From positions 32,001 to 96,000 of IMG/VR virus record IMGVR_UViG_3300027850_000002: a stretch of 64,000 nt of DNA; one strand, given 5' to 3'. Each line of letters starts with the position of its first letter. Within the stretch, counting starts at the first letter, position 1. Of this stretch, positions 13,970 through 64,000 are shown piece after piece. Made by a program: the position numbers and the translations under genes. The stretch comes from a virus. The notes under the pieces are model-generated. The model worked only from the letters and a program-made list of their open reading frames with translations. It did not search any database and was not told the origin of the DNA.

Positions 13970-14722
13970 ATGGCCTCTATGACGAACACGCTGTCTCGTT
14001 TTGCAAAGCTGGCGGTAACGAATCGCCAGACGCAAGACATTGATGCGTGGCATGCGTGGAAGAAGAGTCCGACGGACGCAAACGCGTCTGCTTTGCTCTC
14101 GCACGTTTCGCCGCTCATTCATCGTGAGGCGAACAAATGGGCGGGCACGATGGCTCGTCCTCTCTTGGAATCTGAAGGCAAGCGTCTCGCGATGGAGGCG
14201 TTCCACAACTACGATCCGAACAAGGGTGCGGCGCTCGGCACCCATGTCGTTAACCAACTTCAGCGGATGTCTCGGTTGTCGTACGCGAATCAGAACGTTG
14301 CACGGCTCCCTGAGAACAAGATGCTGCTCTACCACAGCTACAACGTTGCGCACTCGGACCTCTCGGACGCGCACGGACGCGCACCGACGACCGACGAGCT
14401 TGCGGATCATCTCGGATGGCCAATCCCTCATGTGGAGGCGTATCGGAAGTCGATTGGCCGCAGGGAGCTGCTCGAGTCAGGCGGTCTGTTCGAGACGGGT
14501 GACGCAGGGCTCTATGATGGAGACAAGCAGGAGCATGTTGTCGACTTCATTCACCACGCCCTGACGCCGCAACACAAAGCCATCTTCGAGCACTTGACAG
14601 GTTACGGAGGTGCCGAGCAGCTCTCGAATCAAGAGATCCAGAAGAAGCTCGGCATGACGCAGGGGCAATACTCCTACGCCAAGGCGAAACTCATCGAACA
14701 CGTGGAGAAGGTCCATGGCTGA
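13970..14722 (+). CDS. Divergent sigma-70-like factor
   Basis: Region 2-like AFHNYDPNKGAALGTHV, region 3-like GRAPTTDELADHLG, region 4-like LSNQEIQKKLGMTQ. Confidence 0.8.
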   Translation: MASMTNTLSRFAKLAVTNRQTQDIDAWHAWKKSPTDANASALLSHVSPLIHREANKWAGTMARPLLESEGKRLAMEAFHNYDPNKGAALGTHVVNQLQRMSRLSYANQNVARLPENKMLLYHSYNVAHSDLSDAHGRAPTTDELADHLGWPIPHVEAYRKSIGRRELLESGGLFETGDAGLYDGDKQEHVVDFIHHALTPQHKAIFEHLTGYGGAEQLSNQEIQKKLGMTQGQYSYAKAKLIEHVEKVHG

Positions 14723-21235: not shown

Positions 21236-24200
21236 ATGCCCGGCCCTGTGAAACAGTTCCTTGACTACTCTTCGAACACGGCGAACGACACCGGCGAGAA
21301 CAACGCTGCGTCAGTCCAGCCGATTGCCAACGGCGAGACCGTTGAACAAACTGTTCTAAACCGGCCCGGCGAAAGTTTGCGTCAACGCACGGAAGCGATC
21401 CGCAACCTTGAGGCGGACAGCCTCTATCTGCGAGACGCGGACCGGCAGCTCATCCTTGCGGGCCCCGGCAAGGTCACCTGGCCGGGAAGCACGACCGCGG
21501 CGGCCTCCGGCATTCCTGTCATCGACAACAACCTCTTCCTGCTCCCGATGCTCACACCGGGATTTCCGCAGGTCACGCCGGTTCCGCCGGTGGCGTCCGC
21601 CTTCGGTGCGCTCCACCTCAAGCGCGCCAGCGACAGCATGAATTCGATCTCGGTCACCAGCCAGCGCCGGAGCTACGCGGCGGGTGATCAGATCAACGTC
21701 GTCGTCACGCCGGGCGCCGCGTTCTCGTGTGTGCTTGACGTCGAGACGACGTATCAACGGACGATCAAGATCGTCGGTGTGGTTGGCGTGACAACGCTCG
21801 CACAGACGATCACGGCCCTCAACGGGCTCACGCCGACCGCTCCCGACAACACACAGCTCGTACTCGCTGCACTCGAGGGTGGTGCCATTGGATCAGACCT
21901 CCTGCTGACGACGCAGGCCAAGCAGTACGTCACGGGCAACTACGACGGTGAAGGGCACACCATCACCCCCATGAATCTCGCGGGCTTCTTTGTTACGAAC
22001 CCGCTGCAGGCTTTGGGCGAAGGCGACAGCCTTTGCGTCAACTTCCCTATGGTCTCGGACACTGCATCCGTGGGCGGACGTCGACAAGCCCTCCCTGAGA
22101 ATTCGAACACCGCGATTGCGTCGGGTGCTTTTTTCAACAGTCGCGTCCATCCCGAGAACCTCGTCAACGCGCTGCCCATCTGCAAGGTTATCAACGGCAA
22201 CCTGGTGTTCGGCACTGGCGTTGAGATCCCTGCGGGCGCCACCAACGTGTCGCTCAGCACGGAAGACCTGGGTTCGCGCATCATGCGAAACGCGGGGTTC
22301 GAGCACGGCGTCACGCTCAGCACCGCGCGGTTCGGTATCTCCGACTGGGAGAACCGTTCGGACTTGGCAGTCAACGGCGGCTTTCGTTTGAATACGACGA
22401 CACCGCTCACAGGCGCCAAGCAGCTCGAGTTCAACCAAACAAGTGCTTCGGCGGCCACTGGACGCATCGAACAGCCACAGGAAATCGCCGTCAATCCAGG
22501 ACAGAACATTCGCGTCACTGCCGCCGTACGGCAGCTGATTGCCCCAACGGCTGGGCAGTACTCCGTTGTTTTGTACTGGGGCGATACGAACAGCGGTGCG
22601 TCGGGCAATACGACCATCGCGCTTCAGGTGCTTGCGTCCACGGACCCGACATACCGCCAGATCGCGCAGACGGTCGTGGTGCCCGCGGGCAAGCACTTCT
22701 TGAAGCACGTGACTATCGAAGTCACGGGCGTCACCCTCGGCGTGCCCGGTGTATCGCTGCTTGTTGACGATATCCAGGTCGTCGTCGAGACGCAGACGGG
22801 CATGACGCCCGCAGTCGACAACGTGCTCATGCGTCCTCAGACCGTGGACGCCGTGATCGTCGAGGACCCGACAACCTACGCACTTGGTCAGCTCGCCGCG
22901 TTGCTGCGTATGGACAAGGCCGTGCCTGCGTTGGAGGGTCGAACGATCCTCGAGCGTAAGGACCAGGATTACACCGCCGGGAATCTGCCGCCGGCGCTAG
23001 CGCTGTTCGGCCGTCTGTTCCAACTCGGATCCAAGTTGCTGGATTCGGAAGCTCACGCACTCAAGCCGCGTGTGTCCGCGGACTTTGCCGCGCTCGCGGG
23101 CGTGGACTTTACGCTCATGTGGGAATCTGGTCGTGAAGGTGAAGTTGCGGGTACGTACACGCAGCCTGTAACCCGTCTTTACACATCAAACGACGGGCAG
23201 TGGATTCACACGTCCAATGCCGCGTGGGGCGGCGCTACTTGGACCAAAGATGTCGCGGGGCAACCTGCCACCAAGTTCGGCATGGGCAAGGACGGACTGC
23301 GTATTCAAACGCGGGTCAGTGATGTCGCGTGGAATGATGCAGCATGGGCAGCCACGTACCGATTCACGAATCCGCTCGAAAGCGCATCCGACGCACGCAC
23401 TCCGCGCATGACGATGACGGGGTTCGACGGTGCTTCTGTTAACGAGTTCACTCAGTTGTTCGCCCTCAATTTCACAGGGTACACGCTCCGACTTTACGTT
23501 GGGCACCTGACTGACAACGTCGACCTTGCTCTAACGTTCAATGCACAGTGGAACGGGACTGGCTGGGTCAAGGACACCTCGGGCAAAGTTTCAACACGTA
23601 TCTACATAGGCTCTCTTGGTGCAACGTCTGCAGATACAAGCCGACTCAACATCTACCATCAGACGTGCAAGACGACGGATACGTTCCCAGAGTCTGATTG
23701 GACGGCGTCGCCGACCACGGCAACACCGACGGGAACGGGCGGCACGCTCATCACAGGACGTGTGTATGGCGGGGCCACGGCAACGGGCAGCACACCCAAC
23801 CCGCAAGGCCGACTCACTGCAGCGCCTGACGGGTTTGGCGACGGCGTCACATCGTCCTCGTTCGTTATCGATTCGCTCGAGTGCATTGAGACCCCGAACG
23901 TCGCGGTAGGAACCTACGGCGACCTCTGGTCCAACGGCGGAATGATCTTCGAGGAGTTCTTCAACAACGTTGCGCCCAGCGGTTGGCAGGCCGCGACATC
24001 AGGCGCAGGTGTCGTCGAATTCAACTACGAAAACCTTTCTCGCATCCGGTTGAACCCAGGCGCTTCTGATTCGGCTGGAATCCGAACCAATGGATTGGTG
24101 TTTCAGGCTGCGTACAGCTCCTTCACGATCGAGATGCGATACGTCAACGTGCTCGGCAAGTCGCAAATCGGCTACATGGACAGCGCGGCAAATCCAGACA

Positions 24201-48888: not shown

Positions 48889-49109
48889 GTCATGTCCTTT
48901 TGAAATGCTAGAAGGGAAGTCACTCTAGTGATTTCGATGTTTGTTTGGCAAGCACTCACAGAAAGAAAATCTGGCGCTATTCCTGGGGTGCGTAACGAAA
49001 TGCTACGCAAGGGTGGTGGTGTACCCGCCGAGATTGGCACCCAACGGGTAGTGCCTGATCGTGGAACTATTTGATCACTCGTAAGACGCTTGGTAGTGTG
49101 TTCTTGAAT

Positions 49110-49898
49110 ATGGTGATCCCCCAGGCGCGTACCGCCTCGATGTACTACGCCGAAGTCGCACGGGTGCCGTTGGTGGATGACCCCACCGAAGAGAGGCGCC
49201 TGTTGCAACGATGGCAGCAACATCAAGACGTCAAGGCACGCAACGCCATCGTGCAAACCCATCTCCGCTTCGTCGTGAAGATGGCGCACAAGCGCAGCAA
49301 GGATCCCGAAGCCGTCAAGGACTTCATCGCGGCAGGAAACCTGGGTCTCCTTAAGGCGACCGACAAGTTTGACTGGGTACGCAAACCGTACATTCGCTTT
49401 CTGACGTACGCGGGTTGGTGGGTCTACGAAGAGATGTCGAATCAGGACTACACGACGGCCACGCTCGTTCACGTCCCCGCCCATCGCCAGAAAGCACAAC
49501 GCAGAAACGCACGGGAGTTCCGCGCGGCGGTCCAAGAGCACGGACCCGATGCTGCCTCGGTGCAGAAGATGAACCCCGGACTGTCCGAGAGCGTCGTCAT
49601 GCCGCTCGAGGCGGCGCGTTACACCACCAATGCGACCGAGAGTGAGCCGACGTCTACCTATGGGTCGGATCGGCTTCGTTCGATCGTTCGTGAGGTCATT
49701 GGTCGACTGCCTTCCCGAGAGCAGACCGTCCTCAACCTCTTCTACGGCATCAAAGACGATGCACGGAACTTGGTCCAGATCGCGGCCATCATGGGCATGT
49801 GCTCTGAGCGAGTTCGGCAAATCAAGACCAACGGGATGCGCTTACTTCAGGCTGAGTTCGAAGAAGAGCTGCTGACCGCCGAAGACGCGTATCTCTAG
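49110..49898 (+). CDS. Sigma-70 family factor (RpoD/RpoH-like regions 2 and 4)
   Basis: HLRFVVKMA, GNLGLLKATDKFD, RFLTYAGWWV, LPSREQTVL, SERVRQIK; start uncertain. Confidence 0.92.
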   Translation: MVIPQARTASMYYAEVARVPLVDDPTEERRLLQRWQQHQDVKARNAIVQTHLRFVVKMAHKRSKDPEAVKDFIAAGNLGLLKATDKFDWVRKPYIRFLTYAGWWVYEEMSNQDYTTATLVHVPAHRQKAQRRNAREFRAAVQEHGPDAASVQKMNPGLSESVVMPLEAARYTTNATESEPTSTYGSDRLRSIVREVIGRLPSREQTVLNLFYGIKDDARNLVQIAAIMGMCSERVRQIKTNGMRLLQAEFEEELLTAEDAYL

Positions 49899-52715: not shown

Positions 52716-53098
52716 CGTTTATCCCCTCCGGGGTAATCAAAGGACTCCCCATCCATGAGCTGACGTTCGGGCACAGGGAACTTGCCGGGATTGGCAGCGT
52801 TCTTTTGGGATGCACGAAGAATCGCGTCCATGTCGACAGGCGCATTGCCTCCATCGACGACGGTGAGCGGAGGCGTCGGCGTCGCAGTAACTTCAGGTGC
52901 AGACGCTACGGGCGCGACAGGTGTTGCCTCAAGGTCATCGTCATCCGCGTCACCTTCGTCGACGTTATCGACGGAGACGACTACCGAATTCTTTTTGAAC
53001 ACGATGTTCTCGGCGGTTGCTTCAATGCCCCGCTTCGCGAGGCGCAAGCGCACCATCTTGATGATGTCTTTCTCCTCGTACGTAACCACAATCTTCAT
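52712..53098 (-). CDS. Hypothetical acidic protein
   Basis: 128 aa; ATGA overlaps on both sides. Confidence 0.7.
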   Translation of the reverse strand: MKIVVTYEEKDIIKMVRLRLAKRGIEATAENIVFKKNSVVVSVDNVDEGDADDDDLEATPVAPVASAPEVTATPTPPLTVVDGGNAPVDMDAILRASQKNAANPGKFPVPERQLMDGESFDYPGGDKR

Positions 53099-55080
53099 TT
53101 GGTCCTTTCACGGAGCATGGGCAAGGCATACGCCTTGATGACGGGACGGTCCACTTTCTTCGGGTGAACACACCCCTCTTGAAAGGGTTCGACACCTTTA
53201 GCAAGGCACTTCACCGTATGTGGACACAAGGCGCACTCGATCTTGTTCGTGAGCATCGAGTCAACATCGACCTTGTGATCGAGTAGATGTGCCACGGCGA
53301 GTTCAAGCGTGCCGTGACCGATCATCCGGTTAACGGTAACCTTGTTGTTTTGCCCGATTCGATAGTTACGGTCCAAGCACTGAGAGTACGAATTTAACGA
53401 GTACGGCAAGGAGCTATAGACCGTGTATGTAGCGGAGTTCAACGTGATGCCTAGGCCTGTCGTAACTTGCCCAATGTAAACACGTACGGCGGGATCGTCA
53501 TTGAACGCATCGACAGCGACCATCGGGTCACGCGTATTGCCGTCAACACGAACGTGGCCAATCTCTTCTTTGGTAAAACGCTCTTCAATCAGATCCATCT
53601 CGATGTGAAAGTTGCACCAGATGATCACCTTATGAGTCGACGAATCGAGGATGCTGGTAAGCAATTCCATGATCGCATCGAGTTTGGGATTCTCATCGAA
53701 TACGATGGTCGTTGAAGGCCAAGGTGTCGGGTCTACCAGACAACGCGGGGTTCGAGGGTTGATCTGACGCGCCGTACAATCGTCACGGTGTTCACACGGA
53801 GTACCATCACGAATCGTATCGCAATAGAACGGGTCCTTCTCGCTCTTGATGAGAAAGCCCGACGTGATCTGGAGAAGTTTCATCAACGCAGCCGCACGGT
53901 GTGGCATCTCGACCGCTGAGAGTTGGTGCGGCAATAGAGGTATCACCCCAGGTTCACCAGAACGAATCTGGATACCGAGCTGCGCAAGACCTGCAGGGTC
54001 GATACCCATATCAATGACGATCTTGTCGTAGGCGACCGATTGGGCGCGAGATAGTGAATAATCTACGTCTACGAACGTGCGTTCCGGCAGGTCCAGACAC
54101 TGCTCTTTAGTACGACGTATCGCCAAGAACGTGGTACGTGCATTGATAACGTCGAGATTCTTGTAACCAACCACGATGGGTGAGTTGGGACCGCGAGTGA
54201 CGACAAACGTTTTTTTGTATTTCCAGTACGTCTCGGGCATGAAGCAATCGCCCAGGATCTTGTAAGGGCCATACAGGTCCAGCGGATTGCCCTCGGTAGG
54301 CGAGCCCGTCATGAGGATTCGGCGCATCGCCTTCTGTGCGATCTCCCATGTTGTCTTCGTCCGCTCGGACTGCCAGGTCTTCACGCCGTGGCTTTCATCG
54401 CAGACCAGAATGCTGTAAGGCAGCCGTTCTACGAGCAAATCCACTAAACTTCTCGCAGTGTCGTACGTCGAAAGAACCATGTCGGTGCCCTCGGCCGCCG
54501 CGCGATCGAGGATCGCGCGCTTCTGTTTGGGCGTTCCGACCAGCGCTGCCCACGTCACCTGGCGGCCCGAGTGAAGGTCGATCTGACGACCCCAGTTCCG
54601 GACCGTGACACGCGGGCCGAGTACGAGTGCAGTTGCTGTATTGCCGGTATGGCGCAGAAGCCGGATGAGGTCGATCGCGATCTTCGACTTGCCGAGCCCT
54701 GGATCGTAGAACAACGCTGCCCGCATGTTGTAGAAGACGTGACAGAGTCCTTCGACCTGATGCTGATACGGCGACGTGACGTACTCGAATCCGACGGGCA
54801 GAGCTTGGGCCTCGAGCCGTTGGCGAACCTGTTCGAGGTCTTCGATGTGCCGTTGCGCAACGTCGGAGATCACAACGTTGACGTCGGAGGACACGGCCTG
54901 GAAGTCAGCAAGCACCTTGCTGGATGCCGGATAGAACGCGGGGTACATCCACAGCGCGCGATCGCTGTCCCACGTTGCACCAAACACGCGTCCGAACGTT
55001 TGGTTCTGGCCGTGTACCAGGAAGACGGGCGTTCCGTTGCCCGCACGACCGACACGGATTTCCATTTGGGCTCGACCCAT
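53095..55080 (-). CDS. SNF2-family helicase
   Basis: YQHQ, DPGLGKS, DESH, TGSP, GITL, QCLDRNYRIGQ. Confidence 0.9.
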   Translation of the reverse strand: MGRAQMEIRVGRAGNGTPVFLVHGQNQTFGRVFGATWDSDRALWMYPAFYPASSKVLADFQAVSSDVNVVISDVAQRHIEDLEQVRQRLEAQALPVGFEYVTSPYQHQVEGLCHVFYNMRAALFYDPGLGKSKIAIDLIRLLRHTGNTATALVLGPRVTVRNWGRQIDLHSGRQVTWAALVGTPKQKRAILDRAAAEGTDMVLSTYDTARSLVDLLVERLPYSILVCDESHGVKTWQSERTKTTWEIAQKAMRRILMTGSPTEGNPLDLYGPYKILGDCFMPETYWKYKKTFVVTRGPNSPIVVGYKNLDVINARTTFLAIRRTKEQCLDLPERTFVDVDYSLSRAQSVAYDKIVIDMGIDPAGLAQLGIQIRSGEPGVIPLLPHQLSAVEMPHRAAALMKLLQITSGFLIKSEKDPFYCDTIRDGTPCEHRDDCTARQINPRTPRCLVDPTPWPSTTIVFDENPKLDAIMELLTSILDSSTHKVIIWCNFHIEMDLIEERFTKEEIGHVRVDGNTRDPMVAVDAFNDDPAVRVYIGQVTTGLGITLNSATYTVYSSLPYSLNSYSQCLDRNYRIGQNNKVTVNRMIGHGTLELAVAHLLDHKVDVDSMLTNKIECALCPHTVKCLAKGVEPFQEGCVHPKKVDRPVIKAYALPMLRERTK

Positions 55081-55123
55081 GAGGCGTCCGCCTTTCTATC
55101 ATGCGATGATTGCGGGGTAAACC

Positions 55124-56914
55124 ATGGCCATTGATGGAATGTTCGACTCGGGCGTTTCCGATCTGTCGACGCACAACACGTCGTCACACGGTAGTCCACT
55201 GTTCGACTTCCTCACGGCGTTCGCGCCTAGGAAGCTCAAGGACCTCTTTCGTCTTTGCGAGTACCTCTACTTCAACAGCGCCCAGATCTACGCGGCATTG
55301 CAGAAGTTCTGTACGTATCCCGTCACGGACATCGTCTACGAGACGCAGAACGAAGCGCTCAAGGATTACTACGAAGACCTACACAACAAGACGCTCAAGA
55401 CCAAACGCATCTTGATCCGTGCGGCCGTCGACAAGTTCGTCTACGGAAACGCGTTCTTCTCGATGTACGCGCCGTTCGTTCGCTTCCTCAAGTGTCCGAA
55501 GTGCGCGACGCTGACCAACATCCAGCAGGTCACCTACAAGTTCAAGTTGAAGAAGCTGGCGTTCAACTACACGTGCAAGGGCTGCAGCGTTCGCGTCGAC
55601 GTCACTGACAAGGACGTCATCGATCGCAAGATCACACGCAAGGATCGTATCTCAGTGATCCGCTGGGATCCGAAGCTGATGGACATCGACTACAACCCCA
55701 TCACCGGACACAGCGAGTACTACTACACGATCCCCAAGGAAATTAAGGAGCGTTGCGCCAAGGGGAACAAGCACCTCATCGACACCATGCCGATGGAGTT
55801 CTTGAAGGCGATCCGCGAGGACAAGATCTTCAAGTTCGACGAGGGTCAAGTCTTCCACATGCGCATGGATGCGCCTGCGGGTATCGAAGCGCAGTGGGGC
55901 TTCCCGCCACTCGCGTCGACGATCAAGCTGTTCTTCTACGCGGCCGTGCTGCGTAAGGCGAACGAGGCCATCGCGCTCGAGTACATCGTTCCCCTGCGCA
56001 TCATCTCGCCGAAGCAGTCGACGGCAAACGCTGATCCGATGACCACCATCTCCTTGGCCAAGTGGTCCGAGGAGATGAAGACGTCGGTCAAGAAGTGGCG
56101 CCGCGATCCACTGCACATCATGTGGTCGCCAATCCCCGCCGAAGTCACACACCTCGGTGGACAGGCGCGCGCACTCATGACGCTCGGCGAAGTCCAGGCG
56201 GCTGAAGACAACATCATTGCAGCGATGGGGTTGCCCAAGGAGTTCATCTACGGAGGTTTCTCCGCGATGGGCTCGGGCATTCAGTTGCGCGTCCTCGAGA
56301 ATCAGCTCGTCCACCAAACCGGCGACCTCAATGACCTTCTTCAATGGGTCACTGACAAATCCGCGAAGCAGCTCGGACGTGGCACCGTGGTGGTCTCGCT
56401 CGCTCCGTTCCGTTTCATCGACGACGTCCAACAGAAATCCCTTCTGCTGCAGCTCAACGGCGCAGACCCATCGACGGGTCCTTGGATTTCCAAGCGCACG
56501 ATCGGCGTGGCGTTCGACATCGATCCAAGCGACGAGCGCAAGTGGCGCAAGCAAGAGGCGCTCGACGATGCGCGTGTCGCGCAAGAGCTGCAGGTCGAGA
56601 TGCAGAAGCGGCAGAACAACCTTGGAGCCCAGGCACGTGCGCAGGCTCAGCAAGGTCAGCAAGGGCTGTCCTACGACCAGCAGGCCGTGATCGCAGAGGC
56701 AGATCAGCTCGTGCAACAACTGATGGGGTTGGACCCGGGAACGCGGCAATCGCAAATGCACGCGCTTCAGACCGAAGACATGGTGATGTACGCCGTGGTC
56801 AAGGAACGTCTGCACGACCAGACCACGCAGCAAAACCAGCAAGCGATCGCAGCGGCCCGCCAAGGCGGCGATCCCGCAGCCAACGGAGTGCCCCCTCCAG
56901 GCGCCGTGGGTTGA
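55124..56914 (+). CDS. Putative portal protein with CxxC...CxxC insert
   Basis: FVYGNAF, VFHMR...WGFP, IIAAMGLPKEFIYG portal-like motifs; Gln-rich tail. Confidence 0.7.
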   Translation: MAIDGMFDSGVSDLSTHNTSSHGSPLFDFLTAFAPRKLKDLFRLCEYLYFNSAQIYAALQKFCTYPVTDIVYETQNEALKDYYEDLHNKTLKTKRILIRAAVDKFVYGNAFFSMYAPFVRFLKCPKCATLTNIQQVTYKFKLKKLAFNYTCKGCSVRVDVTDKDVIDRKITRKDRISVIRWDPKLMDIDYNPITGHSEYYYTIPKEIKERCAKGNKHLIDTMPMEFLKAIREDKIFKFDEGQVFHMRMDAPAGIEAQWGFPPLASTIKLFFYAAVLRKANEAIALEYIVPLRIISPKQSTANADPMTTISLAKWSEEMKTSVKKWRRDPLHIMWSPIPAEVTHLGGQARALMTLGEVQAAEDNIIAAMGLPKEFIYGGFSAMGSGIQLRVLENQLVHQTGDLNDLLQWVTDKSAKQLGRGTVVVSLAPFRFIDDVQQKSLLLQLNGADPSTGPWISKRTIGVAFDIDPSDERKWRKQEALDDARVAQELQVEMQKRQNNLGAQARAQAQQGQQGLSYDQQAVIAEADQLVQQLMGLDPGTRQSQMHALQTEDMVMYAVVKERLHDQTTQQNQQAIAAARQGGDPAANGVPPPGAVG

Positions 56915-56929
56915 TAGGATAAACACACC

Positions 56930-57307
56930 ATGCCTCAAGAGTCTGAAGACTTCGCCGACGTCATCGAGAAAGCCCAGCGCATCGGTGGCGACATGGGCAG
57001 CCTGTTCAACGGGCCCGGCCGTGTTGCGTTCGAAGCGCAACAGCCGAATCGTGCAGGACCTGTCCAAGACTACGAGGCGCATTCCGAAGTCTTTGCGCTC
57101 CCGGCTGATCGAGAAGCCTACGAAGACGTCATGAACCAAGTCCTGCGCGGTGAAGCGATCATGCGCTACGAGGTCCGTACATTCTCCAAGGAGGGGGACT
57201 TCATGGTTGCGCTGGTCTACCTGACGCCGCTTGCGCGTCCAGCACCAGCACACGATCGAGACGCAGGCGATGCCGAGCCTGTCGAACGACCGCGACGGCT
57301 GCCCTAG
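56930..57307 (+). CDS. Hypothetical protein
   Basis: 125 aa between portal and RNAP. Confidence 0.7.
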   Translation: MPQESEDFADVIEKAQRIGGDMGSLFNGPGRVAFEAQQPNRAGPVQDYEAHSEVFALPADREAYEDVMNQVLRGEAIMRYEVRTFSKEGDFMVALVYLTPLARPAPAHDRDAGDAEPVERPRRLP

Positions 57308-57339
57308 TGGAGTCTTGTACCAAAAAGGACGCGTAACTC

Positions 57340-60300
57340 ATGGTGCCGCTACGCCCAATGCTCGAAGACGCGGCCACGCGTCGCGAGATGATCCGCAAGA
57401 AGGTCATCGAGGGTCTCGAACAATCGTTCCCGCTGAAGGCGGGCAAACACATGGTCGAGCTGTCCAACGTTCGGGTGGACCCGCAGGAGTTTTCCTCCCG
57501 CGAACAGAAGCGTGCGGTGCTCGAAGGCAAGACGTTATCGGAACGTGTACGCGGTGACATCACGGTCAAGAACGCAGCGGGCGGTGTCGTCGACCACTCG
57601 AAGGACTTCACACTGCTTCAGCTGCCGTACTTTACGCCGCGACACACGTTCATCCTCGACGGCACAGAGTACTCCGTATCGAATCAGCTGCGCACCAAAC
57701 CAGGCGCGTACGTCCGTCGCCGCGGCAACGAAGAGCTGGAGGCGACGTTCAACCTTTCAAAGGGCGCCAACTTCCGTGTGTCGATGGAGCCCGAGAAGGG
57801 CCTCCTCTACATGCAGCCGTCACACACGACGACCAAGATCCCGTTGCATCCCATCCTACGCGCGCTGGGGATGCCGCATCAGGACATCGCGGCCGGATGG
57901 GGCTCCGAAATCGCGGGCATGAATCGTGACGCTTGGAAGAATCCAGACAAGCACGTCAGCAAGCTTTACGAGACGCTCATCCATCCCGCGAAACAGGTCG
58001 CAGCGACCACAGAAGATCGAGCACACGCGTTGCGTGAATACTTCAGTGCAACGGCGATGGACCCTGAGGTCACTGCACACACGCTCGGTTATCCGTACGA
58101 CAAAGCTTCGTCATCGTCGATCCTGGCGGCATCCAAGAAACTGCTCGACGTGCACAGGGCCGCCGCCGATGTCGACGACCGTGACTCGTTGGCGTTCAAA
58201 ACGTTTCACTCCGTAGACGACTTCGTCAAAGAACGGGTTCAGCTGGAAGCGCGTGCGATGCGCGCAAAGCTTGGCTGGAAACTGGACGCGAGCCACGGCA
58301 ACCTGAAGAAGGCGCTGCCCGCAGGACCGTTCACGCGTTCGATGCACGGTCTCTTGGTGGGCTCGTCGCTTTCGGCGGTCCCCATGCAGATCAATCCGAT
58401 GGAGCTGCTCGACGAGGCGTCACGCGTCACGATGCTTGGTGAAGGTGCGATTGCGTCCGAGCGCGCGATCCCCCTCGAGGCTCGTGATGTTCATCCAACC
58501 CACTTCGGAATTCTGGACCCTGCACGCACGCCTGAAAGCTTCAAGGTGGGCGTGGACCTGCGCGCAACAATCGGCGCACGGCGTGATGACAAGGGAAACC
58601 TCTACGCGCCCGTGCGCGATATCAAGAGCGGCGCAGCGACGTATCTCAAGGCGGGCGACATGGCGAAGTCCGTCATCGCATTCCCTGGCGAACATGTCGG
58701 GCCAGGAAAAATGGTCGATGCGATGGCGCACGGAGTGGTGTCGCGTGTGTCGTCCGACAAGGTCACGCACCAGCTCGAACACGTCGCTGATCAGTACGGG
58801 CCGACCTCAAACCTGTTGCCGTTGGTCTACGGTATCCAGGCAAACCGCGTGCTCATGGCCAGCAAACACCAAGGCCAGGCATTGCCGCTCACGTACCGTG
58901 AAGCGCCGCTCGTACAGGTCGCGTCGTGGAAGCCAGGGACGTCTGTCGAACGAGAGATGGTCAAACTGATTGTTCCAACCGCGCGCTTCGCCGGCATGGT
59001 CACAAAGATCGACGACGATCACATCCACATCACGCCGCACACAGACAAACACGCATCTGAGGCCGCATCTGAAGTCGAGACGCGGTTGGAACGTGTGAAG
59101 GTGGCAGCGACGGAGCCTCACAAACTCCATTACGACGTGCACTTTCCGCTCGCTGCCAAGACGATGCTCCACAATGAGCTAACCGTGAAGGTGGGCGACC
59201 GTGTCGAAAAGGACCAGCTCCTCGCGCACTCGAACTTCACCAAGGACGGAACGCTCGCCCTCGGGACCAACCTGCGCGTGGCGTACATGCCCTACCGCGG
59301 CCTCAACACCAACGATGGCATCGTCGTATCGCAAGGCGCTGCGGACAAGCTCACCAGCGAACACATGTACCAACACGCGCTCTCACGTGACGGTGATGTT
59401 CAGCTAGGTCGAGAAAAACATCGTACGTACTTCGGCAGTCGCTACACCGCAGAGCAGTACAACAAGCTAGACGACGACGGTGTCGTCAAACCCGGTACGA
59501 CATTGCACAAGGGTGACTTGATTGTCGCGGGTATTCGAGAGAACAAAGTCACGGGGGACGCGCTCCTCCTTGGCAAGCTGTCCAAGTCCTTGGTCAAGCC
59601 GTATCAAGAAGTCACGCAAGTCTGGACGCACGACCATCCCGGTACGGTGATCGACGTTGCCAAGACCGCCAAGCAAGCCGCTGCATCTGTTCGTACGCAA
59701 GAAACGCTTCAAATCGGCGACAAGCTGTCCAACCGATTCGGCAACAAGGGCGTCATCGCGAAGATCATCCCAGATCATCAGATGATCCAGGACGAACACG
59801 GGCGCCCTGTCGACCTGCTGTTCACCTCCGCGGGCATCGTCTCGCGCATTAACCCCGCGCAGGTCATCGAGACAGCGCTCGGCAAAGTTGCTGAGAAGAT
59901 CGGCAAACCGATCGTCGTACCGCAATACACGCCGGGCCGAGACAACATCCAGTTCGCCAAGAACCTGCTCAAGGAGCACGGGCTCACCGACAAGGAAACG
60001 GTCCTCGACCCGATGACGGGAAAGAAAATCCCGAACATCGTCGTGGGCAAGAGCTACATCCTCAAGCTGTTCAAGACGACGGACTCGAACTGGGCAGCAC
60101 ACGGCGCCGAGAAGTACGACTACAACCAGCAGCCCGCACGTGGTGGTGACGAAGGCGCCAAGGGCATCGGCAAGATGGAGTTCGACGGGCTCGTGGCACA
60201 CAACGCCCGGAATGTGTTGCGTGAAGCTGCGTCCATCAAGAGCCAACGTAACGACGAGTTCTGGCGTGCAATTCAACTCGGGCTTCCAACACCCTCGCCC

Positions 60301-61755
60301 AAGACGCCGTTCGCCTACGACAAGCTGCAGAGCATGCTTACGGGCGCCGGCGTCAAGGTCACAAAGACAGGCTCGAGGCTCGCGTTGGGACCTTTGACCG
60401 ACGCCGACGTCAAGTCGATGTCCTCAGGTGCGCTCAAGGATCCGAGCAAGCTCATTCGCGCCAAGGACCTTCGTCCCGAGACACACGGTCTGTTCGACCC
60501 CGGCATGACCGGCGGTATGGCAGGAACGAAATGGTCACACGTCGATTTGCACGAACCGATCGTCAACCCAGTGTTCGAAGAGCCGGTCCGTCGACTGCTT
60601 GGGCTCACGCAGAAGGAGTTCACGGAGCGCGTCGGCAAAGGCGGGCAGTGGTTCAAAACCGCACTCAATGAGATTCACGTCGACAACAAACTGAAGGACC
60701 TGACAGCACAGTCAAAGAAGGCGCGCGGACCAGCGCTCGATGGTGTGGTGAAGCAGATCAAGTATCTCGGGGCGCTAAAGGAACGTGGCCTCAAGCCTGC
60801 GGACGCCTACGTCATCTCAATGGTGCCCGTGACACCGCCCGTGATTCGTCCAATCCTTCCGCTTCAAGATGGGCGACTGCAGGTCAGCGATGCGAACCTC
60901 CTCTACAAGGATGCATTCCTCGCGAACCACCAACTCCGAGAATCAGCGAAGACGTTGCCGTCGTCGGAACTTCCGATGCCTCGTCAACATCTCTACGACG
61001 CGGTGAGCGCGCTTTACGGCGTGGGTGACCCCGTCAGCCCAGGTGCAGAGAAGCGCGGAGCCAAAGGCTACCTCGCGGCCATCACAGGTACGCGCCCTGG
61101 AAGTGGGTTCTTCCAGTCCAAGATCATGAAGCGTCAACAAGACGTCAGTGGTCGCGCGACCATCGCGCCTGACCCTACCTTGTCAATGGACGAGATTGGC
61201 GTGCCTGAAGGCATGCTCTGGGGCATGTATGGAAAGTTCGTCATCGGGCGCTTGGTCCGACGCGGCTATACAGCAACGGATGCGCAGAAGATGGTGGATG
61301 ATCGTGTCCCGACTGCACGGGATGAATTGATCAATGAATCACATGAACGTCCGGTCATGGTCAACCGAGCACCGTCATTGCATCGTTTCAACATCGTGGG
61401 GGCGTATCCCAAGATTGTTGAGGGAAAGACGCTCAAGCTAAACCCGTTCGCTGAAAAAGGGATGAACGCGGACTACGATGGGGATGCGCTACAGATCCAC
61501 GCTCCGGTAACACCTGGAGGCATCGAAGACGTCAAAAAGATGACGCTCTCGCACCTGATCTTCGCGGACAAACGTCCCGGCGTCTTGAACATCGCGCCTG
61601 ACATGGAGGCCGTGCTCGGGCTGCACCGTGCCACGCAGGTGGCCACCAATAAGAAGCTCAAGCACTTCGAGTCGCAAGAAGAAGCGATGGCGGCGTACCA
61701 CCGCGGGGACATCACCCTCAACGACCCCATCGAAATCAAAGGCAAGCACCTATAA
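57340..61755 (+). CDS. rpoB: Phage RNA polymerase: beta subunit fused to the N-terminal (catalytic) half of beta'
   Basis: Beta motifs TFILDGTE, RDVHPTHFG, GDKLSNRFGNKG, GKME; then beta' motifs GLFD, PVTPPVIRP, SGRATI, NRAPSLH, NADYDGD. Confidence 0.95.
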   Translation: MVPLRPMLEDAATRREMIRKKVIEGLEQSFPLKAGKHMVELSNVRVDPQEFSSREQKRAVLEGKTLSERVRGDITVKNAAGGVVDHSKDFTLLQLPYFTPRHTFILDGTEYSVSNQLRTKPGAYVRRRGNEELEATFNLSKGANFRVSMEPEKGLLYMQPSHTTTKIPLHPILRALGMPHQDIAAGWGSEIAGMNRDAWKNPDKHVSKLYETLIHPAKQVAATTEDRAHALREYFSATAMDPEVTAHTLGYPYDKASSSSILAASKKLLDVHRAAADVDDRDSLAFKTFHSVDDFVKERVQLEARAMRAKLGWKLDASHGNLKKALPAGPFTRSMHGLLVGSSLSAVPMQINPMELLDEASRVTMLGEGAIASERAIPLEARDVHPTHFGILDPARTPESFKVGVDLRATIGARRDDKGNLYAPVRDIKSGAATYLKAGDMAKSVIAFPGEHVGPGKMVDAMAHGVVSRVSSDKVTHQLEHVADQYGPTSNLLPLVYGIQANRVLMASKHQGQALPLTYREAPLVQVASWKPGTSVEREMVKLIVPTARFAGMVTKIDDDHIHITPHTDKHASEAASEVETRLERVKVAATEPHKLHYDVHFPLAAKTMLHNELTVKVGDRVEKDQLLAHSNFTKDGTLALGTNLRVAYMPYRGLNTNDGIVVSQGAADKLTSEHMYQHALSRDGDVQLGREKHRTYFGSRYTAEQYNKLDDDGVVKPGTTLHKGDLIVAGIRENKVTGDALLLGKLSKSLVKPYQEVTQVWTHDHPGTVIDVAKTAKQAAASVRTQETLQIGDKLSNRFGNKGVIAKIIPDHQMIQDEHGRPVDLLFTSAGIVSRINPAQVIETALGKVAEKIGKPIVVPQYTPGRDNIQFAKNLLKEHGLTDKETVLDPMTGKKIPNIVVGKSYILKLFKTTDSNWAAHGAEKYDYNQQPARGGDEGAKGIGKMEFDGLVAHNARNVLREAASIKSQRNDEFWRAIQLGLPTPSPKTPFAYDKLQSMLTGAGVKVTKTGSRLALGPLTDADVKSMSSGALKDPSKLIRAKDLRPETHGLFDPGMTGGMAGTKWSHVDLHEPIVNPVFEEPVRRLLGLTQKEFTERVGKGGQWFKTALNEIHVDNKLKDLTAQSKKARGPALDGVVKQIKYLGALKERGLKPADAYVISMVPVTPPVIRPILPLQDGRLQVSDANLLYKDAFLANHQLRESAKTLPSSELPMPRQHLYDAVSALYGVGDPVSPGAEKRGAKGYLAAITGTRPGSGFFQSKIMKRQQDVSGRATIAPDPTLSMDEIGVPEGMLWGMYGKFVIGRLVRRGYTATDAQKMVDDRVPTARDELINESHERPVMVNRAPSLHRFNIVGAYPKIVEGKTLKLNPFAEKGMNADYDGDALQIHAPVTPGGIEDVKKMTLSHLIFADKRPGVLNIAPDMEAVLGLHRATQVATNKKLKHFESQEEAMAAYHRGDITLNDPIEIKGKHL

Positions 61756-61756
61756 T
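61749..61756 (+). promoter_or_regulatory. CCTATAAT candidate phage promoter
   Basis: Overlaps the RNAP stop codon, 5 nt before GTG at 61762. Confidence 0.55.
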
Positions 61757-61761
61757 AAAGC

Positions 61762-62130
61762 GTGTCCTTCGTCAGCAACGCGCACGGTCGAGGCGTGGTC
61801 GCCGCTCTCGTGCGGTTCGGTCTCAAGAACGCAGCCGAGGAGCTGCGGCTGAAAATCCCGAGCCGTACGTTTCACGGATTCGACGCGGCCCACAAAACAG
61901 AAGCGGACCGCGGCGCGAAGAAAGCAGCTGACGAGATCGAGGGCAACGCGAACAACCTCGCGGACATGTTCAAGCAGCTCGAAGAGGGTGTTTCACCCGC
62001 CGTTCAGCTTGCCTCGCGTGACCCGCTCGATCGACAAGTGTCGTGGGGCGCACCGTCGAACCTTGCGGCCGGCGATGCGGGGAACCGCGTTAGTGATATG
62101 GGACAACCAACCGGCTTTGGAGGCGTCTGA
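61762..62130 (+). CDS. Hypothetical protein with G-x3-A-x2-RF leader and K-x-A motifs
   Basis: GVVAALVRFGLKNAAEE, AKKAADE. Confidence 0.7.
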   Translation: MSFVSNAHGRGVVAALVRFGLKNAAEELRLKIPSRTFHGFDAAHKTEADRGAKKAADEIEGNANNLADMFKQLEEGVSPAVQLASRDPLDRQVSWGAPSNLAAGDAGNRVSDMGQPTGFGGV

Positions 62131-62537
62131 TGCTCGATCGTTTTGTTAACCAGGGTCGCATTGACGCGATGGTGCGTTTCAAGGTCAGCATGTCGCTGGG
62201 TAAACCAGGTGGCGGGAGTCGCTTCAGCGCTCCGCCAATGGCAGCAGCACCGGCTGCGGCTGCCGCCAGTGCGGGCGGCGGCGGTTTCATGGACAAGGCC
62301 AAAGCGTTCGGCAGTGGCCAGCTCGGGGCCGCGAAGGACCTTCTGGGCAATATGCGCCAAGGCCTCGGCGGAGCAGCGTCCCCCGAGCTAGGTGCGGCAG
62401 CTCGCGGTGCTGCGCTCGGCAATCTCAAGACTCTCGCGCCGTCGCTCCTCGCAGGCGGCGGTCTCTACTTGATGCACAAGCACAAGCAGGAGCAGGCGCA
62501 GGCGCGGCAGCAGCAGATGATGCCGGGCAGTTTCTGA
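62130..62537 (+). CDS. Gly/Ala-rich hypothetical protein with a similar leader
   Basis: GRIDAMVRFKVS; short hydrophobic segment near the C-terminus; TGATG coupling. Confidence 0.7.
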   Translation: MLDRFVNQGRIDAMVRFKVSMSLGKPGGGSRFSAPPMAAAPAAAAASAGGGGFMDKAKAFGSGQLGAAKDLLGNMRQGLGGAASPELGAAARGAALGNLKTLAPSLLAGGGLYLMHKHKQEQAQARQQQMMPGSF

Positions 62538-62548
62538 AACGTTGAACC

Positions 62549-64000
62549 ATGCCGACGACCCTTGGCCAACATCTCGTCGATTCGATCCTTCCACAGAAGT
62601 GGAAGGGTGGCGGCGTTCTGACCAAGGGCGCGTTGAACACCATGCTTCTGGGTGTGGCCAAGGACGACGTGCACAAGTACCCCGACGTCGTGACACGGCT
62701 CAAAAGGCTGGGTGACGAGGTCGCTACGCTCGACGGAATTTCCGTCGGTCTCGACGACATTGCACCGCACGCAACCGACCGTGACGCCGCGTTGAAGCCG
62801 CACGCTGACGCGTTCCACCAGGCGACGAACAACCCCGACAAGATCAAGGCCCTCATCGGCGGGCAGAACGCGATGCTCAACCTCGCGCGCAATCACCCCG
62901 GCACGATGGGTGAGATGGTACGTGCTGGCGGACGCGGCAACGCCGCGCAGCTCATGCGTACGGTTGGAGCGCCGGTGTTTGCCGAAGATTCCAAAGGGAA
63001 AGTCATCCCGTGGTTCGTCAACAAGAGCTTCTCCGAAGGACTCAAGCCGGCAGACGCATGGGTGATGGGCGGGCAGGCGCGCGTCAATGCGGTGGTCTCG
63101 AACATTTCGGTCGTTGAACCAGGAGACCTTGCCAAAATTCTCGTCAACAACATGGGCGACCAGCTCGTGTCGTCCGTCGACTGCGGAACGCACAATGGTC
63201 TCGCGATGCTTCCGACCGATGCCCACATCATCGATCGGTACCTGGCAGGCACGAATCAACTGATCACGCCGCAGCTTGCGTCGCACCTCGCCAAAGAAGG
63301 CAAGGACGTCATCGTGCGTTCACCGATGACTTGTCAGGCCGCACACGGTGTCTGTCAACACTGCCAGGGCTTGTCGACGTCAGGACACGCCCACCCCATC
63401 GGGACGAACATCGGCGTACGCGCGGCACAGGCCCTCGCGGAACCTCTCACCCAGTTCGCGCTCAACGCCAAGCACGGCGGACGTGTGGTTGGTGTCGACG
63501 ACGAGAAGCGGCTCGAGGGCATCAAAGGCGTGCGAGCACTGCTCGAGATTCCATCGTCGTTCGCGCACAAGGCCGTGCTCTCGGATCGTGACGGGTCGGT
63601 GTCAAAGATCGACAAGGCACCACAAGGCGGTCACTTCGTCTTCGTCGGCGCCGGCAGTCACTACGTACCGCCCGCGCACAAGGTGACGGTCAACGTCGGC
63701 CAGTCAATGTACGCGGGCGACCTGCTCTCAGACGGCGTTCCCAAGCCAGACGAAATCGTTCAACACAAGGGACTCGGCGAAGGACGGCGTTACCTCGTCG
63801 ACGCGCTCTCGGACGTCTACAAACGTGCCGGCTCCGAGATCGACAAACGGCACCTGGAAATCTTGGCCAAGAGCGTGCTCAACCACGTTCAGATCACAGA
63901 CCCAGGTCCGCACGATGCCTTTCTCAAAGGTGACATCGTCAACTACAACCAGTTCCAGTCGGCGGTCGCTGCGTCGAAACAACGGCGTCCGACGGCAGAC
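62549..64000 (+). CDS. rpoC: RNA polymerase beta' C-terminal half, partial (runs off window; not in ORF track)
   Basis: Manual translation MPTTLGQHLV...GISVGLDDI...GGRGN...SFSEGL...VRSPMTC...GVCQHC...GVRAAQALAEPLTQFALNAKH...IDKRHLEIL. Confidence 0.92.
   Translation, partial: MPTTLGQHLVDSILPQKWKGGGVLTKGALNTMLLGVAKDDVHKYPDVVTRLKRLGDEVATLDGISVGLDDIAPHATDRDAALKPHADAFHQATNNPDKIKALIGGQNAMLNLARNHPGTMGEMVRAGGRGNAAQLMRTVGAPVFAEDSKGKVIPWFVNKSFSEGLKPADAWVMGGQARVNAVVSNISVVEPGDLAKILVNNMGDQLVSSVDCGTHNGLAMLPTDAHIIDRYLAGTNQLITPQLASHLAKEGKDVIVRSPMTCQAAHGVCQHCQGLSTSGHAHPIGTNIGVRAAQALAEPLTQFALNAKHGGRVVGVDDEKRLEGIKGVRALLEIPSSFAHKAVLSDRDGSVSKIDKAPQGGHFVFVGAGSHYVPPAHKVTVNVGQSMYAGDLLSDGVPKPDEIVQHKGLGEGRRYLVDALSDVYKRAGSEIDKRHLEILAKSVLNHVQITDPGPHDAFLKGDIVNYNQFQSAVAASKQRRPTAD

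Follow-up and report, generated by a model that had tools for sequence, protein, structure and literature searches.

A phage RNA polymerase core with β fused to the N-terminal half of β′ and a separate gene for the C-terminal half of β′

How is a multisubunit RNA polymerase (RNAP) built when one gene carries the β subunit joined to the N-terminal half of β′ and another gene carries the rest of β′? The question is raised by a stretch of viral DNA of 64,000 nucleotides (nt), hereafter the window, to which all positions refer unless stated otherwise. It comprises bases 32001-96000 of the 175,415-bp IMG/VR virus record IMGVR_UViG_3300027850_000002, for which the CheckV completeness estimate is 94%. 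The public runs with the record's sequence are freshwater metagenomes, and no RNA dataset is among the public runs holding the phage sequence. A preliminary description, made from the letters of the window, had proposed a rearranged minimal RNAP encoded by two genes at this place. With a probability of about 0.7, we consider that these genes encode the two-chain core of the phage's only multisubunit RNAP, an enzyme that would have been fused and then split, would be free of alpha and omega, would use the phage's own sigma factors and would be packaged in the virion. The two genes are the following:

57340-61755, plus strand: fused gene, 1471 amino acids (aa), with β residues 1 to ~1004 in frame with the N-terminal half of β′ (β′N, residues ~1005-1471).
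62549-64000, plus strand: gene for the C-terminal half of β′ (β′C), 593 aa; its end, at genome position 96330, is 330 nt outside the window.

Pfam, PDB and E. coli alignments agree that the single 1471-aa open reading frame (ORF) passes from β motifs into β′ N-terminal motifs without a stop, as the preliminary description had it. Pfam recognised Rpb2_3 (residues 350-405) and Rpb2_6 (626-933, E 3.6e-47) in the β part, and Rpb1_1 (1125-1205) and Rpb1_2 (1335-1399, E 1.9e-20) in the β′ part of the same chain. Residues 91-1035 corresponded to residues 99-1085 of the 1104-aa β chain PDB 8gzg_C (E 6e-62), residues ~1082-1469 matched β′ ~146 to ~560 of solved structures, and residues 1017-1054 gave a weak but collinear match to the first 60 residues of β′. 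The junction and the site of the Zn ribbon were mapped by aligning ten family members with E. coli RpoB and RpoC:

60307-60420, plus strand (alignment): fusion junction, the β C-terminal helix running directly into the β′ N-terminus with no linker.
60487-60549, plus strand (alignment): Zn ribbon deletion site, GLFDPGMTGGMAGTKWSHVDL in place of E. coli β′ 68-99.
59713-59751, plus strand: β catalytic barrel motif IGDKLSNRFGNKG, the equivalent of E. coli GDK...HGNKG, aligned to β 1064-1075.
61465-61485, plus strand: NADYDGD catalytic Mg loop, residues 1376-1382.

At the junction the E. coli β C-terminus (...GINIELEDE) paired with ...GAGVKVT in the fused chain, and the β′ N-terminus (from about residue 15, ...IKIALASPD...) lay flush on KTGSRLALGPLTDAD (residues ~1000-1020, nt ~60337-60400); what is missing is limited to a few residues at the end of β and the first 14 of β′. 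The multiple alignment bore out a β part of about 1000 aa and the absence of the β′ N-terminal Zn ribbon, the four-Cys element being a clean 32-residue gap in all ten family members. Further gaps relative to E. coli were found at β 229-419 (in part), 936-1047 and 1127-1180, of which we take the first two to be lineage-specific E. coli insertions. Both catalytic barrels are intact, with IGDKLSNRFGNKG in β and NADYDGD in β′. The chain stops about 90 residues past NADYDGD, at about E. coli β′ 571, and so agrees with the early end noticed previously; β′ is not complete in this chain.

The 593-aa chain was recognised by Pfam as Rpb1_5 and aligned to β′ from region F onward. The Rpb2 and Rpb1 domains are thereby distributed over the two ORFs as claimed, and the bridge helix, the second Zn site and the trigger loop indeed lie on the separate ORF from 62549, two small genes after the first:

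63038-63148, plus strand: bridge helix, in the β′C gene.
63179-63199 and 63332-63364, plus strand: Zn site 2, C212/C262/C269/C272 (DCGTH...CxxxxxxCxxC).
63422-63481, plus strand: trigger loop, without an SI3-type insertion.

Both double-psi barrels therefore sit on the long chain and the mobile elements on the short one, as had been proposed. The 1471-aa chain provides all of β (lobes, flap and the GDK...GNKG barrel) head-to-tail with the N-terminal half of β′ (clamp core, clamp helices and the NADYDGD barrel). The 593-aa chain contributes the bridge helix within region F, the second Zn site, a trigger loop of the plain kind and a C-terminal module. In the enzyme that we envisage, the two would assemble non-covalently, like cyanobacterial γ and β′.

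That the layout is an assembly artefact or a decaying gene has a practically negligible probability: independent assemblies and an isolate genome share it, and the catalytic motifs are intact. Logan contigs from two freshwater metagenome runs, which may be the source samples, are identical over 59800-63000, and no sign of an assembly error was seen. By tblastn, a fused gene of 1450-1550 aa is also present in Salmonella phage Arash (gp206) and in Vibrio phages D69, D148 and D181, each of which has a separate β′C gene of about 600 aa. The fused gene was found in 28 IMG/VR loci, and all 21 that reach far enough downstream hold a separate β′C gene; in these loci, Arash and Vibrio phage D69 it lies 0.65-5 kb downstream of the fused gene. 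More than 120 protein clusters at 65-92% identity occur on contigs of up to 197 kb. The two-gene layout is confirmed as real and as common to a large phage lineage.

To place this layout among its relatives, we ran an exhaustive phmmer search with the β′N query against 1.84 billion cluster representatives, took the best 150 (all E < 1e-84) and classed them by BLAST against the three parts (β, β′N and β′C). None of these 150 has ordinary separate β and β′. The split type, with β and β′N in one chain, accounts for 97 of the 150, and 42 carry β, β′N and β′C in one chain, typically of 2000-2100 aa. The other 11 are short entries with β′N only, and the three that were looked up are from short contigs (1.6-3 kb). 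Where all parts are in one chain, the equivalent of β′C residue 3 directly follows the last β′N residue. These single-chain forms reside on phage-like contigs whose genes are mostly orphans, and in no isolate of the phage collection. No Cys was present at the Zn ribbon site in 16 of 18 single-chain relatives, those where the motif search found the site. On one 15-kb metagenomic contig (L039), an Acb5 (anti-CBASS) gene lies at 1556-1765, about 4.3 kb upstream of the single-chain β-β′ gene.

Two trees were built from the β+β′N region, one with FastTree (114 rows, E. coli outgroup) and one with IQ-TREE under LG+G4 (47 rows; outgroups E. coli, Acinetobacter and Staphylococcus). The phage lineage was monophyletic in both, and the split type formed one clade nested among single-chain forms, with Shimodaira-Hasegawa (SH)-like support of 99 in FastTree and an SH approximate likelihood ratio test (SH-aLRT) value of 99 in IQ-TREE. 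The window and Arash are split at one and the same alignment column, corresponding to about E. coli β′ 568-571, which the single-chain relatives cross without interruption. Since the split clade is nested among single-chain forms, one change of architecture suffices; the order shown by the trees is fusion first and one later fission of β′, the split form being, by this phylogeny, derived from a single-chain enzyme. The lineage first fused β to β′ and lost the β′ Zn ribbon; in the sub-lineage of this phage, Arash and the Vibrio phages, a single split of β′ then separated the barrel from the bridge helix at about E. coli β′ 570.

The existence of single-chain relatives, as well as of inteins and homing endonucleases in the lineage, might suggest that the split is only apparent and that RNA splicing, a split intein or recoding brings both ORFs back into one chain. 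We regard this as very improbable. The chain ends ...IKGKHL and MPTTLG... are flush with the single-chain forms and carry no extra residues, which leaves no room for intein halves, and no Rfam family, introns included, was found in 55000-64000 at E up to 0.1. Moreover, the spacer has genes of its own, and in Arash it is 4.8 kb long and includes nine genes, of which five are oriented oppositely and one encodes a structural protein. The spacer genes in the window are:

61762-62130, plus strand: small gene between the RNAP genes, 122 aa, starting with GTG; no family match.
62130-62537, plus strand: small Ala/Gly-rich gene between the RNAP genes, 135 aa; no family match.

Pfam and PHROGs were blank for both, as for an ORF at 56930-57307. 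Both spacer-gene proteins open with a similar helix, ..AHGRGVVAALVRFGLK.. and ..FVNQGRIDAMVRFKV.. respectively, which neither RNAP chain has.

The RNAP genes of the relatives carry several kinds of additional sequence. Selfish inserts are particularly frequent in the fused gene: L036:5791-11790 has one of about 410 aa that resembles an intein (Cys start, GN|S end) and stands right after the conserved β 'TPE', and LAGLIDADG (PF14528) inserts are present in P0118 and P0119. The 1800-aa variants gain about 350 aa by an insert that lies close to residue 394 in L016, L019 and L030-L032, and past about residue 797 in L026-L028. For Vibrio phages D181 and D148, tblastn matched the fused gene as two separate pieces, and one of the features under the match is a homing-endonuclease gene. 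A C-terminally extended β′C of 975-1107 aa characterises one sub-clade (L029:11077-14400, L034:11245-14439, L035:11077-14400 and L037:6360-9287), and its extra 400-500 residues have no Pfam match in L029 and L037, the two scanned. A further place of variation is a loop in β:

59047-59100, plus strand: short variable loop in β, residues ~570-587.

At this site relatives carry a GNAT domain or other large inserts. A GNAT acetyltransferase (PF00583/PF13508) lies inside the loop in P0010, P0020, P0054, P0090-P0093, L034:5980-10767 and L037:1027-5859, at about residues 570-665 of P0010, which makes these RNA polymerases with a built-in acetyltransferase; L036 has another domain, not GNAT, in the same loop. 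The loop opens with K-x-[AGS]-[AS] (59047-59060), in the same column in L015, L018, L029, L034, L036 and L037; this start is shared by all aligned metagenomic relatives but L017 and is not found in Arash or D69. K-x-A sites of the head-protease type were considered over the whole RNAP: 13 were seen against ~10.7 expected from composition and the relatives were also at chance, so that the total count gives no support to protease sites.

Another segment of β concerns the action of rifampicin:

58360-58446, plus strand (alignment): β segment equivalent to E. coli β 507-534.

E. coli β 507-534 is the rifampicin pocket. The positions of E. coli β Q513, D516 and H526 are occupied by A, M and E in the phage β, and given these residues we predict that the phage RNAP is insensitive to rifampicin.

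Is the core self-sufficient? The genome holds one RNAP set only. The preliminary description had seen no alpha or omega gene in the window, and Pfam showed the same for the entire 175-kb record and for five relatives. PF01000 and PF01193 (the halves of the alpha N-terminal domain) and PF01192 (omega) gave no match over the cut-off in the genome, although all 14 control genomes matched; PF01000 and PF01192 gave none over the cut-off in the five relatives (three complete genomes, Arash and D69). Omega candidates in two relatives were rejected, being non-syntenic and scoring 16.4 and 13.1 bits against a cut-off of 26. We envisage that the covalent β-β′ tether would stand in place of the alpha-dimer assembly platform, so that the enzyme would need no alpha or omega of its own. 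The core might instead recruit host alpha, and perhaps omega, for its assembly and would then not be minimal. Such recruitment would fit the clearly bacterial type of β and β′ (28-30% identity to bacterial subunits), and no phage protein able to replace alpha was found. We nevertheless consider it rather improbable. The hosts include at least Salmonella and Vibrio plus those of the freshwater members, for which reason host alpha would vary greatly in sequence; alpha is dispensable for phiKZ- and AR9-type enzymes; and the tether would remove alpha's main assembly role. That the enzyme is minimal, as it had been called, we still infer, since host alpha could be used.

For initiation, the phage-encoded core would rely on sigma-70-family factors from the phage itself, and one of them is predicted to sit on the clamp helices. 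The relevant features are:

49071-49898, plus strand: canonical sigma-70-family factor whose regions 2 and 4 both pass the Pfam cut-offs; Arash and Vibrio phage D69 have it too.
13970-14722, plus strand: divergent member of the sigma-70 family, encoded among the baseplate genes; orthologous to Arash gp10.
60835-61017, plus strand: β′ lid and clamp helices (coiled coil), where the sigma-like protein is predicted to dock.
59551-59595, plus strand (alignment): β flap-tip-like helix (TGDALLLGKLSKSLV).

In bacterial RNAP the flap-tip helix is where sigma region 4 docks. The divergent factor shares 33% identity with Arash gp10 (E 3e-39) and reached 24.9 bits in Pfam, for Sigma70_r3 only, against a cut-off of 25.3. 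Its AlphaFold model (mean predicted local distance difference test score, pLDDT, 65.6) had sigma-S, sigma-A and WhiG as top Foldseek matches, with E of 6e-7 to 1e-4 and template modelling (TM) scores of 0.28-0.34. Co-folding with β′N gave 0.69, against 0.00 for the best control; 58 of 80 solved complexes and 2 of 110 mismatched pairs came up to that mark. Individual runs agreed in at least 57% of contacts, with a partner pLDDT of about 70, and placed β′N residues 168-217 (clamp helices) against sigma residues 58-76, a region 2.2-like segment. Docking of the divergent sigma on the β′ clamp helices is thus predicted by the model; sigma holoenzymes being already solved, a pass shows likeness and not proven binding. 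Opposite sigma-70 region 2.3/2.4, which in primary sigmas has conserved aromatics (YATWWIRQ), the divergent sigma reads THVVNQLQR. With this stretch in place of the aromatic one, its promoter melting or -10 reading may differ from that of primary sigmas. A weak Sigma70_r4_2 match (12.8 bits) was also found at genome positions 22379-22450.

When would the enzyme be made, and does it enter the cell with the DNA? Upstream of the fused gene and over its end we found:

55124-56914, plus strand: portal gene, two genes upstream of the fused gene; orthologue of Arash gp204 (28% identity, E 2e-93).
56930-57307, plus strand: small ORF, 125 aa, between the portal and RNAP genes; no match in anything compared.
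61749-61756, plus strand: CCTATAAT, a -10-like motif that overlaps the fused gene's stop codon and lies 5 nt ahead of the GTG with which the following gene starts.

The portal gene, the small ORF, the fused gene, the two small genes and the β′C gene share one strand and are spaced 6-32 nt apart, and no terminator-like site was found between the genes on that strand from portal to β′C. CCTATAAT has five copies in the window (5128, 20656, 29074, 34073 and 61749, all on the plus strand) against 0.77 expected from shuffles, and the variant CTATCAT stands 27 nt before the portal start. A scan of 54800-64000 for sigma-70-consensus promoters (-35/-10 pair) returned none, against 1.8 expected. CCTATAAT may be a -10-only late promoter. 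The strand shared by portal and RNAP genes, the short gaps and the CCTATAAT motif support late expression of the RNAP genes together with virion parts. The small ORF was rejected as a counterpart of Arash gp205, with which it has no similarity. Divergent from this cluster is a gene for a 661-aa helicase (phrog_62; 53095-55080, minus strand), and in Arash the gene of gp198c, annotated as an ATP-dependent DNA helicase, precedes the portal gene by a few genes and has the opposite orientation. The Arash gp217 helicase has no homologue in this genome, and a 995-aa ORF downstream is unrelated to it.

In purified Arash virions, gp206 gave the most spectra (3516), above the major capsid protein, with 1210 for gp216 and 467 for the sigma gp10 (PMC10585845). 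By analogy we infer that the RNAP is also packaged in the virion of the phage studied here. Judging from the Arash virion proteome and the position of the genes, the enzyme would be made late with virion proteins and packaged with the gp10-like sigma, and it could then transcribe early genes after injection. The same enzyme might instead be a non-virion one, with host RNAP transcribing the early genes and the phage RNAP and its sigmas serving middle or late genes only. The Arash authors, who suggest early transcription, also allow carry-over, as abundant enzymes may co-purify with particles (PMC10585845), and phiKZ-type phages have separate virion and non-virion enzymes, as opposed to the single RNAP set here. 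We consider this alternative rather unlikely: gp206 is the top virion protein by spectra and is accompanied by gp216 and gp10 (PMC10585845), the RNAP genes lie in the portal/late-gene cluster in both phages, and the gp10-like sigma gene lies in the baseplate cluster.

Several points weigh against the packaged, alpha- and omega-free enzyme that we favour. The evidence from virions comes from a relative at 34% identity, Arash, whose authors allow carry-over, and the present phage is known from its genes alone. A capsid-targeting tag is visible on neither RNAP chain, which also favours a non-virion enzyme. Alpha and omega were sought by Pfam profile, and a very divergent substitute or the use of host alpha is possible. 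The bridge helix is strongly diverged from the bacterial consensus. Finally, the outgroup branch is long in both trees, with three bacterial outgroups only.

Among cellular enzymes, natural rpoB-rpoC fusions occur in Helicobacter and Wolbachia, and β-β′ tethers have been engineered in E. coli. As in the phage chain, the rpoB-rpoC fusions join the β C-terminus in frame to the β′ N-terminus. Cellular fusions, however, comprise the whole of β′, keep the Zn ribbon and work with alpha2 and omega, whereas the phage chain stops after the β′ barrel and leaves the remainder to a separate gene. Closer analogues are the 42 single-chain relatives of about 2050 aa; the Helicobacter fusion is roughly 2900 aa long. 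The cut has a parallel in cyanobacteria and plastids, where rpoC1 (γ) and rpoC2 (β′) are likewise separated between barrel and bridge helix and the order β, β′N, β′C is the same, but cyanobacterial β is not fused to γ. The phage cut at about E. coli β′ 568-571 lies 25-45 residues upstream of the cyanobacterial one at ~596-617, an indirect estimate made via PDB alignments of the γ/β′ boundary; it is probably near, and not at, the cyanobacterial site. Because the single-chain relatives are basal, the phage split is, on the trees, independent of the cyanobacterial split.

The RNAPs of the phiKZ/AR9 type resemble the present enzyme in being phage-encoded, in lacking alpha and omega and in a β′ split after the barrel, a position also given for jumbo-phage β′ in the review by Sokolova, and one of their enzymes is packaged in the virion (PMC7598289, PMC7824862). 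They differ in having β in two or three pieces and two paralogous sets, in being far more diverged, and in using gp68 or gp226 instead of sigma-70-type factors (PMC7598289, PMC7824862), whereas the phage studied here has a whole fused β, one RNAP set and two sigma-70-family genes. Jumbo-phage RNAPs appear in reviews in split form only (PMC7598289, PMC7824862). The mReC phages of Weinheimer and Aylward (2020) are uncultured tailed phages whose β and β′ were found with cellular profiles and whose RNAP genes lie among structural genes (PMC7481178). They were selected for at least 800 aa per subunit, and their paper does not mention fusion (PMC7481178); among the rows examined of their contig table, all mReC contigs have two different genes of ~900 aa or more each and no protein for both subunits. 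Membership of our phage in mReC was rejected, as its β′C gene has only 593 aa and NADYDGD lies in the gene that also holds β. One mReC contig from the same metagenome as a relative was likewise set aside as a different phage, with genes of 1371 and 1010 aa. The crAss-like virion RNAP, which we take to be the ~2180-aa gp66 of phi14:2, offers another comparison. This fused enzyme, mentioned in the mReC paper, is a single-chain two-barrel RNAP in the virion, but it is undetectable with β/β′ profiles (PMC7481178), in contrast to the Pfam Rpb1 and Rpb2 matches obtained here, with E down to 1e-47.

The same two-gene architecture and the loss of the Zn ribbon are present in Arash gp206 and gp216 (OQ632216; PMC10585845) and in Vibrio phages D69, D148 and D181. 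The split column, the upstream portal gene and both sigma genes are shared with the present phage; Arash differs in its ~34% identity and in having nine genes between its two RNAP genes. These gene pairs of Arash and the three Vibrio phages are thus already public in GenBank, labelled as β, β′ or hypothetical, and neither the records nor the Arash paper mention a fusion or split (PMC10585845). Full-text searches, in which most subscription journals were not covered, gave no description of the architecture, either as a β-β′N fusion with separate β′C or in single-chain form. New is the lineage-wide picture of split and single-chain forms, which adds more than a single locus.

Beside cellular fusions and the splits known from cyanobacteria or jumbo phages, the locus and its relatives present a third manner in which the universal RNAP core has been cut and joined, and one with an ordered history of fusion, loss of the Zn ribbon and a single fission. 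As a tentative and possible extension, which may well fail, the lineage would have a self-sufficient sigma-70-dependent RNAP that does without alpha, omega and the Zn ribbon, consists of one chain of ~2050 aa or of two, and is packaged in the virion and injected with its own sigma for a host-independent start. If true, this would be the first sigma-dependent virion RNAP and the smallest known bacterial-type holoenzyme. The phage enzyme aligns residue by residue with bacterial RNAP, yet is apparently without alpha, omega and the Zn ribbon, and keeps sigma-70-type initiation. An enzyme so bacterial-like and yet reduced makes several matters testable: the real role of alpha, the need for the Zn ribbon in sigma-dependent initiation, and the bridge-helix/trigger-loop module as a separate subunit. 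A cultured member is at hand in Arash, which grows on Salmonella Typhimurium ATCC 14028, and the one- or two-chain enzyme with its sigma could serve as an orthogonal transcription module.

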